This document shows positions 7,989-15,357 of a stretch of 32,000 bases of DNA, piece after piece. A program made the translations under genes and the position numbers. Under the pieces are notes generated by a model, which worked only from the letters and a program-made list of their open reading frames with translations, had not been told where the DNA came from and made no database searches. The stretch's first letter is position 1; every line of letters starts with the position of its first letter. The DNA lies in contig CP002278.1 in the NCBI GenBank assembly GCA_000166095.1, forward strand, positions 1,211,343 to 1,243,342. Reading direction: 5' to 3'. The DNA comes from Methanothermus fervidus DSM 2088. Lineage in GTDB: Archaea > Methanobacteriota > Methanobacteria > DSM-2088 > Methanothermaceae.

Positions 7989-8062
7989 TCCCGGCTGCCG
8001 GATTTGAACCGGCGACCCGCGGATCTACAGTCCGCCGCTCTACCAGACTGAGCTAAGCCGGG
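7989..8062 (-). tRNA. tRNA-Tyr (anticodon GTA)
   Basis: Hand-folded 74-nt cloverleaf: acceptor CCCGGCT/AGCCGGG, D arm GCTC-AGTCTGGTA-GAGC, anticodon arm GCGGA-CTGTAGA-TCCGC, T arm GCCGG-TTCAAAT-CCGGC, discriminator A. The C1:G72 pair is typical of archaeal tRNA-Tyr. No encoded CCA and no intron. Confidence 0.93.
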
Positions 8063-11063: not shown

Positions 11064-11405
11064 TTAACTCAGCCTCATAATTGCTTCTGCGATGTCACCA
11101 TTACTTTCTTTTAAGGCTTTTTCAGCCTCATCCCTACTAACTCCTGTTTGTTCCATAACAAGCTTAATATCTTCTTCAGGTATTTTTTCCTCAACTTTTC
11201 TTTCTTCAACTTTACCAGTCACTTGATATGTCTTTTGACCCATTAGATCCATCAAAGTTACACTGGGATTCTTTATAACAAGCTCTTTGTCATTCATTTT
11301 AATAATAACTTCATTAACACCTTTTAATTCTTCCATTTTCATTCCCATTTGCTTCATAACTTTTTGCATACGTCTCAACTGTCTTGGATCCATACCAGGT
11401 ATCAT
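11064..11405 (-). CDS. nac: Nascent polypeptide-associated complex protein (archaeal NAC, with C-terminal UBA domain)
   Basis: MDPRQLRRMQKVMKQMGM N-terminus, NAC beta-barrel segment, and C-terminal UBA-like VSRDEAEKALKESNGDIAEAIMRL. ATGA overlap with the tgtA stop. Confidence 0.92.
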   Translation of the reverse strand: MIPGMDPRQLRRMQKVMKQMGMKMEELKGVNEVIIKMNDKELVIKNPSVTLMDLMGQKTYQVTGKVEERKVEEKIPEEDIKLVMEQTGVSRDEAEKALKESNGDIAEAIMRLS

Positions 11406-13366
11406 TCACTCCACTCCTTTCTATTTTTTACAGCCACTCCTCTCTCAAACTCCATCATTTCATAGCTAGATAATACAGCTTTACCAAATGCGATTAATTC
11501 ATCATCCTTATTAACAACTAAAACTTCGTCATTTGCTCTTATCTTTTTATCACAATCTATAATAAATTTGGCAAATACATTTCTACCAGCTTTTACGAAT
11601 GGTTCTGCTTCCTCATTAACAACGACTCTATTTAATGGATATTCTCTATTTTCATGTAATTTTTTTGCTCCATCCCAAGTTAGTATTATAAACCCATCTG
11701 GTGGTCGTATAGTAGCTAAAAGAACATCGTCTTCATAAATATACCTTATTCTCCCAGTTTTTCTACTTCTCAACACTCTAATATTTCCATTAAATAAGGC
11801 TTCTCCACTTCCTTCACCAAATTGATAATCAGCCATTAATTTTACTATTTCTAGATCTTCAATTTTTGTTTCTATTTCTATATCATCTCTGTATTTATTT
11901 GATAAACCAAGATCAAATCTTTCATTTACAAGTTCATTGACAAGAACTTCTTCATATTCTTCAAACAAATCCTCAATTTTTTTAATTAAAAATTCTTTCA
12001 TCTCTAAATCATAATTTTTTGGAACTTCGCATTGAGCAAGAGGATATAATTCATCTACGCCTAGAGGAATTATACAAAATGGAACATCCACAACAAAAAA
12101 TTGGGATTCTTCTATAGGTTTACTAGAATTTCCTATACGATAGAATCCTTTAATTTTCTTAGGAATATTTCTATTGTATGGTTTACCATAAGAAGGTAAC
12201 AATATTGCCCTACTCCTTTTTGGTAATTGTTTAATTTTTTTAAAATGACGATATATTTCCACACGTCTTAAACTTTCAGGGCCTAAGTAAAAGAATGCTG
12301 AAGGTTTTGTTACAGGATCATATTTTTCTATAAATTTTTTATATTTAAGAAGTTCTCTATAAGCATCTAAAAGTGTTGGATGAGATCTACATCTTTTTTC
12401 AACAAGTTCCATCAATGATCCATCATATATTGCCTGCCTAACTCTTCTCATCTCACTAAAACTTACATAAAGATTATGTTGAGATATCAATTTATATCTT
12501 TCATCTTTTTCCATTCTCCTCAATTCCTCAGGCGTATATTCTAGACATATTGGACATGTGCATGGCATTTCTTGTAAATCTTGGAGTTTATAAGTTCCAT
12601 GTGGACTTAAAAATCTATCATCTTGTGCATATAACATATAAGCGGCTGAATCAAATAAATCACAGCCCATAGCTACCATCAATGCAAATAACATTGGATG
12701 CCCAGCACCCATAAGATGTATAGGACGAGAACGTGGTAAATGTTGAACTGAAGACATGACTATATTTACTATTGTTCTGTAATCATAAGATTCAAGTAGT
12801 GGAACAACAGCGCCTATTGGATGCACATCAAAAGAATATTTACTTAATTCCTTTGCACAACGGGCTCTAAGGTCAGGATATGTTGATCCTTGTACTACAG
12901 CATTAAGTAGCATATCTTTCCTATAATCTAAAGATTCTATAGCTCTTTTAATTGTTATGTCTAATTCTTCTTCTGCTCTTTTTCTACTAACATATGGTGG
13001 TGTGGGTATATCTAATGAAGTTCCAATATCTGAACCTATTTTTTCTTGGAACTCAATTATTTCTTTATTACTAACATCAATATCTCCATATTTAGAAAGT
13101 TGGAAAGAACCTGAATCAGTCATTACAACTCCATCAAAATCTATTAATTTATGTACACCTTTTTTAATTGCTTCTTCTCTAAGTTCTTCATCTCTGTAGA
13201 TTATATATGCGTTAGTAATGACTATCTCTTTGTTAAATTTTTTTATGTCAAATTCTTGTTTTTTTGGATGAATAACTGGCATTAAGGTAGGGGTTTGAAC
13301 TTTTTTATTTTTCACTGTAAATATGCCAATTCTTCCAAGTCCATCTTTTCTCTTTATTTCAAACAT
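11402..13366 (-). CDS. tgtA: Archaeosine tRNA-guanine(15) transglycosylase with C-terminal PUA region
   Basis: TGT TIM-barrel motifs (VMTDSGSFQ, HLMGAGHP), Zn site CTCPIC, and a long C-terminal extension ending in a PUA-like segment. 654 aa is typical of ArcTGT. GGTGA lies 7 nt upstream of the ATG. Confidence 0.93.
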   Translation of the reverse strand: MFEIKRKDGLGRIGIFTVKNKKVQTPTLMPVIHPKKQEFDIKKFNKEIVITNAYIIYRDEELREEAIKKGVHKLIDFDGVVMTDSGSFQLSKYGDIDVSNKEIIEFQEKIGSDIGTSLDIPTPPYVSRKRAEEELDITIKRAIESLDYRKDMLLNAVVQGSTYPDLRARCAKELSKYSFDVHPIGAVVPLLESYDYRTIVNIVMSSVQHLPRSRPIHLMGAGHPMLFALMVAMGCDLFDSAAYMLYAQDDRFLSPHGTYKLQDLQEMPCTCPICLEYTPEELRRMEKDERYKLISQHNLYVSFSEMRRVRQAIYDGSLMELVEKRCRSHPTLLDAYRELLKYKKFIEKYDPVTKPSAFFYLGPESLRRVEIYRHFKKIKQLPKRSRAILLPSYGKPYNRNIPKKIKGFYRIGNSSKPIEESQFFVVDVPFCIIPLGVDELYPLAQCEVPKNYDLEMKEFLIKKIEDLFEEYEEVLVNELVNERFDLGLSNKYRDDIEIETKIEDLEIVKLMADYQFGEGSGEALFNGNIRVLRSRKTGRIRYIYEDDVLLATIRPPDGFIILTWDGAKKLHENREYPLNRVVVNEEAEPFVKAGRNVFAKFIIDCDKKIRANDEVLVVNKDDELIAFGKAVLSSYEMMEFERGVAVKNRKEWSE

Positions 13367-13377
13367 ATAAATGTCAC

Positions 13378-14511
13378 CTATTGAATGGTTTCTTTAATTT
13401 TTTTCAAGCGCTTACGCATCATCAATATTCTTTCCCTAGAATTCTTTGGACGTGGTTCATTACAACCACAGATACATTTATCAAACTGTGGACATACAAT
13501 ATACTTGGCCTCATAACTATTTATCTCAATCCCAAATTTCTGTGCATTTTTAATAGCCCTTGTATTTGCCTCAGCTTTCCCTAAATACAATGGAGTTCTA
13601 GCTGAGGAGGATAAATATTCCTTATGTCTTGCCTTCTTTCTTTCAATTTTTCTTCTCTTTAAAATTTTTTCTGCAGGATCATTTAAATTTGGATCTCTAA
13701 ATGGTATTCCCACATCACTTAAGGCTATCATTCTTTCATCATCAACATTAAGTTGTTTTTTTATGAGGGAAGGATTTGGGGATGCTATAGTCCCTCCACG
13801 TTTTCTACCAAATATAGGACCTTCCCCTATATAAAATCCCACTTCAATCATCCCAGATCTTACTGGAGCAGCAGATGTATAAGTTGTTAAAATACTATTT
13901 TTATTCATAACCCTAATAACTTCATTGAAAAATTCAACAGTGTATAATTCTGGAGATCTTAAAGGACTATAAGCATCTAAAAATACCACATCATAATAAT
14001 CAGATTTTAAATTTTTTATAACATCTCTTGCATCATTACAGAATACATTAATTTTTATGTTTTTTCTCTTGTCTTTTGTTTTGTTGTCAATTTTTTTCAA
14101 TACTCCCTCTTCATAAAGTTTCTTTTTATATACAGTTTTAATAAGCTTGTGAGAATCTATGGGACTTGGTATTAACGTTGCTAACAATAATACTTCTTTT
14201 GATATTTCAATCATGTCTATTTTTAAATTATTTTTCTTTTTATGAATTAATGCAGCAGAATTATAACCCAATCCTGAACATATGTCCAAAACTTTGAGTT
14301 TTTCTTTTTTTAATACTTCAATAGGTTTAACAAATTTTTCAAATGATTCTGTAATTGCACCATGGATTGTATGCATCGTTTCATTAAAATTAGATTTAAC
14401 TGTATATGAACCATCTTTAGTCTTAATTAAATATTTCATTAATTTACCTTTGACGTTGTAACCTTCTAGATACTTCTTCAGTAATTTGGAGACTCTACTG
14501 TCTAATTTCAT
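13378..14511 (-). CDS. MnmC-like (DUF752/COG4121) SAM-dependent methyltransferase with Cys-rich C-terminal extension
   Basis: DGSYTVKS..NETMHTIHGAITESFEKFV, LDICSGLGYNS, VVFLDAYSPLRSPELYTVEFF...TTYTSAAPVRSGMIEVGF parallel the MnmC methyltransferase domain. The C-terminus contains CPQFDKCICGC. Confidence 0.7.
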   Translation of the reverse strand: MKLDSRVSKLLKKYLEGYNVKGKLMKYLIKTKDGSYTVKSNFNETMHTIHGAITESFEKFVKPIEVLKKEKLKVLDICSGLGYNSAALIHKKKNNLKIDMIEISKEVLLLATLIPSPIDSHKLIKTVYKKKLYEEGVLKKIDNKTKDKRKNIKINVFCNDARDVIKNLKSDYYDVVFLDAYSPLRSPELYTVEFFNEVIRVMNKNSILTTYTSAAPVRSGMIEVGFYIGEGPIFGRKRGGTIASPNPSLIKKQLNVDDERMIALSDVGIPFRDPNLNDPAEKILKRRKIERKKARHKEYLSSSARTPLYLGKAEANTRAIKNAQKFGIEINSYEAKYIVCPQFDKCICGCNEPRPKNSRERILMMRKRLKKIKETIQ

Positions 14512-14546
14512 ATTTGTACCATAATTTTGTTAAAATTAGAGATTAA

Positions 14547-14596
14547 TCAGTATTTCTTTTTCATCATCAAAATTCAGATAGCGAAATGTTCATCAT
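14547..14596 (-). ncRNA. C/D-box sRNA candidate (2'-O-methylation guide)
   Basis: The minus strand reads ATGATGA(C)-ACATTTCGCTAT-CTGA(D')-ATT-TTGATGA(C')-TGAAAAAGAAATA-CTGA(D). The core is 50 nt with 12- and 13-nt guides and is fully intergenic. Confidence 0.55.
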
Positions 14597-14606
14597 GCTA
14601 TTATAG

Positions 14607-14614
14607 TTTATATT
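14607..14614 (+). promoter_or_regulatory. TATA box candidate for the radical SAM gene
   Basis: TTTATATT lies about 35-50 nt upstream of the candidate starts (TTG 14650, GTG 14662). Confidence 0.3.
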
Positions 14615-14649
14615 AGTGAATTAATAATATTTTTTCAAATAAAACTTTT

Positions 14650-15357
14650 TTGGGGATTATAGTGATAATTTCTCATTTTTCAGTAAGTGACAAGATAACA
14701 ATTTTAGTTGCTAGATGTAATTTTAAATGTAAATATTGTTTTTTCAAACCTTTTAGAGAGATAGATATAGATGTAGAAAAATTAATAAAAATCACTAAAA
14801 AATTAAGAAAGCAATTTAAATTAAATAAAATCATGATTGCAGGTGGAGAACCTACTTTGGAAAAGGACCTGCCTGAATTTGTAAAATTATTAAAAGAGAA
14901 TAATTTTTATGTTATAATTTCAACTAACGGATATTATTTATGTGAAATGTTGCATAAACTAGAGGCAGATGAAATTCATATTGATTTAAAAGCATTGGAT
15001 AACAAGATTCATAAAAAGTTAACAGGCTCATCAAACAAAAAAATTTTGAAATGCATTGAATACATAGGACTAAGAAAAAATAGGCTACCTTTTAGAGTAG
15101 AAGTATGTACTGTGTATATTCCTGGAATTGTTGAAATCAATGAAATAAGAAATATAGCTAAATTTCTTAGTAAGTGGGATTTACACTATAGGATAACTGG
15201 TCATGTGCCAGTTACTTTAAATGTTCGTAGGCCTACTAGAGATGAATTATTATTTGCTAAAAAGGAAGCTTGTAAATACCTATCTAATGTTACGTCTTCA
15301 CTAGATTTTAAAAGACATAAACCTTCACAAATCAAGATTAATCCTGAGGAGTTGTGA
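14650..15357 (+). CDS. Radical SAM protein (small activase/QueE-like size class; exact function unresolved)
   Basis: CxxxCxxC cluster motif in ARCNFKCKYCF, then IAGGEPTL and IISTNG. GTG 14662, behind GGGG (14652-14655), is an alternative start. Confidence 0.75.
   Translation: MGIIVIISHFSVSDKITILVARCNFKCKYCFFKPFREIDIDVEKLIKITKKLRKQFKLNKIMIAGGEPTLEKDLPEFVKLLKENNFYVIISTNGYYLCEMLHKLEADEIHIDLKALDNKIHKKLTGSSNKKILKCIEYIGLRKNRLPFRVEVCTVYIPGIVEINEIRNIAKFLSKWDLHYRITGHVPVTLNVRRPTRDELLFAKKEACKYLSNVTSSLDFKRHKPSQIKINPEEL

Follow-up and report, generated by a model that had tools for sequence, protein, structure and literature searches.

The locus analyzed here is located in a 138-nt spacer between a minus-strand gene encoding an MnmC-like methyltransferase and a divergent radical SAM gene of Methanothermus fervidus DSM 2088, and was studied within a window of 32,000 nt, that is, the whole stretch of DNA that was analyzed. 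M. fervidus DSM 2088 is a hyperthermophile featuring a genome of 1,243,342 bp with a GC content of 31.6% (PMC3035299), and the assembly used here is a single contig with the same length and GC content. On the minus strand of the spacer, from position 14596 to position 14547, all four boxes (C, D', C', and D) were read from the sequence in perfect form and with archaeal spacing, with a box C of the RUGAUGA type near the 5' end and a box D CUGA near the 3' end (Table 1). The C/D layout that had been proposed for this strand in the original prediction, including the boxes, the guides, and the succession of CTGA, ATT, and TTGATGA, was recovered at all coordinates as described. No open reading frame of at least 40 amino acids was found over the element on either strand.

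Table 1. Features of the minus-strand element and its surroundings (positions refer to the window).
Feature	Position	Strand	Basis or remark
Archaeosine tgtA, downstream of the methyltransferase gene	11402-13366	-	
MnmC-like SAM methyltransferase (Methyltransf_30), ATG at 14511	13378-14511	-	Pfam
35-nt spacer, box D to methyltransferase ATG	14512-14546	-	T4 run at 14535-14532; GGU Shine-Dalgarno remnant at 14520-14518
Box D, CUGA (DNA CTGA)	14547-14550	-	Direct reading
D guide/spacer, UGAAAAAGAAAUA (DNA TGAAAAAGAAATA), A-rich, orphan	14551-14563	-	rRNA/tRNA target scan
Box C' region, two readings	14561-14570	-	Both parses returned by pattern scan
AUU (DNA ATT), D'-C' loop in the 3-nt reading	between 14574 and 14570	-	Sequence reading
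Box D', CUGA (DNA CTGA)	14574-14577	-	Direct reading and sR39 alignment
D' guide, ACAUUUCGCUAU (DNA ACATTTCGCTAT), 12 nt	14578-14589	-	Pairs with 23S rRNA 2036-2046 (GUAGCGAAAUG)
Box C, AUGAUGA (DNA ATGATGA)	14590-14596	-	Direct reading; invariant in alignment with sR39 members
Putative promoter, A-run (BRE-like, GAAAAAA) followed by TATA-like ATATTATTAA	14621-14636	-	Predicted

The internal box pair can be parsed in two ways because of the run UGAUGAUGA (DNA TGATGATGA). In the first reading, box C' is UUGAUGA (TTGATGA, 14570-14564), leaving a 3-nt D'-C' loop and a 13-nt D guide, while in the second reading it is AUGAUGA (ATGATGA, 14567-14561), leaving a 6-nt loop and a 10-nt D guide. The 3-nt spacer and the 13-nt guide that had been claimed for this region are thus present, but the second parse had been overlooked. 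In nearly all other C/D loci of the genome, box C' is AUGAUGA, the forms listed being AUGAUGA or GUGAUGA. Both loop lengths fall within the 3-9 nt that separate D' and C' in archaeal C/D sRNAs, and the spacers of 12 nt (D') and 13 nt (D) agree with the usual length of about 12 nt; the 10-nt D guide of the alternative parse is short and may impair the RNP. Neither a terminal stem nor a significant fold was detected beyond that of shuffled sequences (z = 0.40), and the flanks of the locus, UAGC and UUAA, form no stem. Lack of a terminal stem is common among archaeal C/D sRNAs and typical of those from hyperthermophiles. Furthermore, C/D sRNAs of hyperthermophiles are often circularised (PMC3695527).

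Regarding transcription, the TATA-like element TATTATTA that had been reported at 14629-14622 (minus strand) is indeed present and forms part of the putative promoter, an assignment resting on AT-rich sequence within an AT-rich spacer. As the archaeal TATA element is positioned at about -26, promoter geometry predicts that the sRNA would start near 14600-14598, i.e., 2-4 nt before box C. The 35-nt spacer downstream of box D is too short for a separate TATA element (about -26) plus a leader, and no hairpin terminator was detected in it by the sigma-70/terminator scan, of which only the absence of a hairpin was used, the sigma-70 model being inapplicable to an archaeon. For these reasons, the sRNA most likely resides in the leader of the methyltransferase-tgtA transcript, from which it would be trimmed out after RNP formation. 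Trimming from transcripts is the model given for most archaeal C/D genes by Tripp et al. 2017 (reviewed in PMC7994747). On the opposite strand, TTTATATTA (window 14607-14615, plus strand) is a near-consensus archaeal TATA element, which would serve the divergent radical SAM gene. The TTG start of the latter at 14650 (plus strand) is doubtful, and a GTG at 14662, following GGGGAT (14652-14657), looks better.

To search for targets, both guides were compared in the fixed D/D'-box register with both rRNA operons and 40 tRNAs of M. fervidus, as the original prediction had suggested; the D' guide found a partner in the 23S rRNA, but the D guide did not. The D' guide forms 11 contiguous base pairs (10 Watson-Crick and one G-U) with the organism's own 23S rRNA in both operons, whereas the runner-up match comprised 8 bp at 23S C1299. 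The nucleotide at N+5 is paired with the C of UAGC, corresponding to C2040 (E. coli C1934), which is precisely the site predicted before. This position lies in domain IV, just 3' of helix 69 and 5 nt 5' of the m5U1939 site in E. coli numbering. Among shuffled guides, 0.98% reached at least 10 Watson-Crick pairs covering N+5 against the same rRNAs and tRNAs, as did 1.6% of 12-mers drawn at random from the genome, so that the chance of such a guide-target match is about 0.01. The domain IV target named in the original prediction (GGUAGCGAAAUUCC) was right in substance with respect to pairing and site, but one base was wrong: the target region of M. fervidus reads GGUAGCGAAAUGCC, ending in AAAUGCC and not in AAAUUCC, and the differing base, the G of AAAUGCC, is the partner of a C in the guide. 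In archaea, helices 68-71 of domain IV, where this site lies, have been documented as a hotspot of guide-directed methylation (PMC4644070, PMC7994747).

The D guide, by comparison with the at least 9-10 bp of complementarity including N+5 that characterize archaeal guides and that were seen for the D' guide, had no specific target in rRNA or tRNA. Its best match consisted of 8 scattered base pairs, and the longest contiguous run covering N+5 was 6 bp. The 11-nt complement of the D guide occurs in 56 copies in the genome and is thus too common in this AT-rich sequence for a target to be assigned. The A-rich stretch may act as a filler holding the two box pairs at the needed distance, in which case the RNA would function as a single guide by means of the D' half.

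Comparison with the Rfam collection yielded nothing at the locus at gathering thresholds, while with E-value reporting every match at the locus was a C/D family. Among these, sR39 (RF01122), a C/D box sRNA first described in Pyrococcus, is of particular relevance, its consensus D' guide AAUUUCGCUAG being almost identical to that of the window locus. The locus scored 22.6-24.1 bits against sR39, well under the gathering cut-off of 50, and nevertheless represents the best sR39 match genome-wide (24.1 bits, E 3.7e-5), covering model positions 5-38 only. Full membership in RF01122 was therefore rejected. Aligned with sR39 members, the locus agrees in every column of box C, the D' guide core UUUCGCUA, and boxes D' and C', all of which are invariant; the D' guide AAUUUCGCUA(G/U) is followed directly by box D' at the locus, and the N+5 register is the same, which gives the same predicted target, the C of 23S UAGCGAAAU. 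In contrast, the sR39 D guide of the form (C/G)UAC(U/C)C(C/U)CGCAA (CUACUCCCGCAA or GUACCCUCGCAA), which complements 16S rRNA, and the GGC/GCC terminal stem are replaced in M. fervidus by the A-rich UGAAAAAGAAAUA devoid of a target and by stemless ends. The sR39 D guide was also sought elsewhere in the M. fervidus genome, where only the antisense of 16S itself was found; the 16S sequence that it targets is still present. Based on its sequence, the locus is classed as a C/D box sRNA whose 5' half is homologous to sR39 and whose 3' half has diverged.

To determine how widely this guide is distributed, one genome per species (185,579 species) was scanned with the pattern ATGAWGA-N1-4-TTTCGCTAN-CTGA-N2-9-TGATGA (guide UUUCGCUAN). 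All 12 loci obtained are archaeal, originating from Methanocaldococcus (two), a Methanococci MAG (one), Thermococcus or other Thermococci (eight), and an unclassified archaeon (one), and the seven that were scored all exceeded the sR39 gathering score (62-78 bits compared to 50). Another relative is MKAsR43 of the hyperthermophilic class I methanogen Methanopyrus kandleri, which was detected by RNA-seq with 64,100 reads (Dennis et al. 2015, PMC4644070 supplementary file 1). Its D' guide GCGUUUCGCUAG has the same register as that of the window locus. It retains an sR39-type D guide (UUACUCCCGC), which the window locus does not, and its boxes are degenerate (D' CCGA, C' GGAUGAC), whereas those of M. 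fervidus are perfect. The shared D' register of MKAsR43 and the sR39 RNAs indicates that the guide-target pair is old and expressed in at least one relative. Furthermore, guide and target co-vary: Methanocaldococcus combines 23S AAAUUCC with the guide AAUUUCG, and M. fervidus combines 23S AAAUGCC with the guide CAUUUCG. The sole distal guide difference from sR39 (A to C) thereby matches the U-to-G change in the 23S rRNA of this lineage, and the AAAUGCC variant also occurs in the nearest relatives of M. fervidus.

The gene context of sR39 differs from that of the window locus, since it neighbors Maf/L7Ae in Thermococcus, whereas in Methanococci the adjoining genes are SufBD, rhomboid, or RNA polymerase A''. 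As these neighbors are unrelated to tRNA modification, the tRNA-modification genes of the window were rejected as being linked in function to the sRNA. The original prediction had emphasized the position next to tRNA-modification genes, and the methyltransferase and tgtA genes do adjoin the element, but the association is not conserved and therefore looks incidental; methyltransferase-tgtA is probably a co-transcript of the sRNA and not a functional partner. Regarding the Thermococcus arrangement, the sR39 gene of Thermococcus sp. JdFR-02 (L010:3753-4274) is located approximately 95 nt upstream of the L7Ae gene and is co-directional with it, with Maf on the other side, and a second sR39 locus (L013) likewise has Maf as a neighbor. 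Placement of an L7Ae-binding guide RNA just before the L7Ae gene might have a bearing on L7Ae autoregulation.

Among closer relatives, a search for the guide pattern in 329 genomes of the class including M. fervidus, which is the only one of its order in the collection, returned no copy in the 328 others. Two pattern matches in one genus were regarded as chance, consisting of coding-like sequence without C' and D boxes. Conservation of the boxes in orthologous intergenic regions, which the original prediction had proposed as a check, was not observed, as no C/D sRNA was found upstream of the methyltransferase orthologs (48-59% identity) of five relatives. In two of these, G002 (L021:1300-1350) and G001 (L023:1310-1360), an A-rich block with (C/T)ATGATG(A/G) and AAATTTT(C)ACATTG precedes the methyltransferase gene, and nothing comparable was obtained for G003. 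The block can be aligned, though weakly, to either the region of box C or that of box C' of the window sRNA (shuffle P values of 0.003, 0.05, and 0.5) and could be a decayed remnant or chance; given the weak alignment and the ambiguous register, it was not accepted as a remnant of the sRNA. Archaeal C/D genes are described to turn over and move fast, with few of them in lineages that are less thermophilic (PMC7994747). Absence from the relatives is thus not decisive, considering this rapid turnover and a collection without a congeneric genome.

The occurrence of similar elements throughout the M. fervidus genome was evaluated with the strict pattern RUGAUGA-N10-14-CUGA-N2-8-NUGAUGA-N10-14-CUGA, which returned 14 distinct loci, compared to none in 25 second-order Markov versions of the genome, and a slightly relaxed scan yielded 15 C/D loci. 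Genes for the protein machinery are also encoded, with adjacent Nop5 and fibrillarin genes at genome coordinates 1107226-1108544 and an L7Ae gene at 433802-434080. Together with the other loci, these genes indicate that the C/D system is in use by the organism and that the window locus is one standard-looking member. The other loci (e.g., 103953, 111053, 450139, and 556593) have the same boxes AUGAUGA/CUGA, a length of 48-56 nt, and no terminal stem, and in several of them a good guide is likewise accompanied by an orphan one of AT-rich sequence. They differ in their guides and targets, the window locus being the only one aimed at 23S domain IV helices 69-71. Five or six of the loci lie at most 60 nt upstream of a co-directional open reading frame and three just after one. 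The published annotation of M. fervidus comprises only 50 RNA genes (PMC3035299), so that the approximately 15 C/D loci are probably missing from it. Rfam thresholds alone would annotate none of them; in the window, the sole match at gathering threshold is a tRNA gene (7989-8062, minus strand, 70.2 bits).

Several of the loci outside the window have features of their own. At genome position 476199-476246 (plus strand), a C/D unit (UUGAUGA...CUGA...GUGAUGA...CUGA) is placed within a tRNA with the anticodon loop CUCCAGA (Trp), and its D guide AGAUCUGGAGUC complements the anticodon stem-loop. This unit, one of the 15 loci, represents the known guide arrangement of the pre-tRNA-Trp intron, which is expected there. 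Tandem or overlapping units are present at 226489-226594 (minus strand), where the D box CUGA at 226539 shares UGA with the next C box, and three guides with a common middle box pair were found at 556374-556456 (plus strand). Both of these arrangements look like polycistronic sRNA clusters.

Apart from a guide RNA, the position of the element calls for considering a k-turn in the methyltransferase-tgtA leader, the boxes of which would bind L7Ae (and Nop5/fibrillarin) and thereby tune transcription, processing, or translation, with guiding being secondary or absent. In line with this possibility, the interval from box D to the ATG measures 35 nt, lacks terminator-like sites, and is too short for a promoter of its own, and five or six C/D loci of the genome lie within 60 nt upstream of open reading frames. 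Moreover, L7Ae has been reported to bind k-turns in the leaders of archaeal mRNAs (PMC5539422), and a gene whose 5' side is overlapped by a C/D gene is reported to be expressed at a lower level (PMC7994747). Such a function is nevertheless unlikely to be the main one, because a D' guide that is common to sR39 RNAs in unrelated gene contexts and has co-varied with its rRNA target argues for selection on guiding, and the orthologous methyltransferase genes of the relatives do not have such an element. It is, moreover, compatible with the guide-RNA reading. By extension, and with a similarly small probability, the sRNA could be an obligatory leader part of the methyltransferase/tgtA operon, in which assembly of L7Ae, Nop5, and fibrillarin chooses between release of the guide and read-through with translation. 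If so, rRNA methylation capacity would be coupled to tRNA modification in a hyperthermophile, the A-rich "guide" would be recruited intergenic sequence, and a half-sRNA captured by an active promoter could persist.

The divergence of the 3' half also raises the question of whether the locus is a decaying relic of an sR39 gene that once carried two guides, having lost the D guide and the terminal stem, and with an RNA that would no longer assemble stably or function. In favor of a relic, the 3' half bears no relationship to sR39, the 16S-directed D guide of sR39 is at no other locus although its 16S target persists, the D spacer is possibly only 10 nt long, and the RNA is missing from the rest of the class. 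Four perfect boxes and a D' guide fitting the lineage-specific rRNA would, however, be unexpected under neutral decay at 31.6% GC, and other sRNAs of the genome likewise have a single guide next to an AT-rich spacer, making a relic highly improbable. Even less credible, to the point of being nearly negligible, is a chance constellation of motifs in an AT-rich intergenic spacer: the motifs are individually short, and C-box heptamers alone occur about 520 times in the genome, but the full pattern was never produced by the simulated genomes, the guide-target match has its own low chance probability, and the 5' half is nearly identical to that of sR39 members.

With high confidence, we thus regard the locus as a minus-strand C/D box sRNA of about 50-55 nt that is predicted to guide formation of Cm at 23S C2040. 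The boxes and their spacing, the 11-bp target, the sR39 register, and the machinery encoded by the host together support the earlier C/D interpretation, each of the expectations that can be read from sequence having been borne out. In all likelihood it is a genuine archaeal C/D guide RNA of an ordinary type, namely a diverged sR39 relative missed by standard annotation. Its RNA would most likely be made from a promoter near 14621-14636 and be released at a weak T-run or trimmed from the methyltransferase-tgtA leader. Boxes C and D would fold into a k-turn and boxes C' and D' into a k-loop, both bound by L7Ae, with Nop5 and fibrillarin joining the RNA afterwards. Pairing of the 12-nt D' guide with GUAGCGAAAUG in 23S domain IV would then present the C opposite the guide's fifth nucleotide, counted upstream from box D', for 2'-O-methylation by fibrillarin. 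Expression of the sRNA, RNP assembly, methylation, start site, and co-transcription are what we infer from these features, and no report on a C/D sRNA, small RNAs, the transcriptome, or a modification map of M. fervidus was found in the literature searched.

The mechanism is the established one, and the understanding of C/D RNP function remains unchanged; what is new here is this additional member, the fact that only half of it has diverged from sR39, and the co-variation of guide and target. Covariance models of dual-guide families overlook relatives that retain one guide only. For M. fervidus, a hyperthermophilic methanogen, the analysis contributes a guide RNA with good support, together with a predicted Cm in the subunit-interface region of the 23S rRNA. 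For the family, the range of the sR39 guide-target pair comprises Thermococci, Methanococci, Methanopyrus, and Methanothermus, and in the last of these the guide has kept pace with a lineage-specific rRNA substitution.
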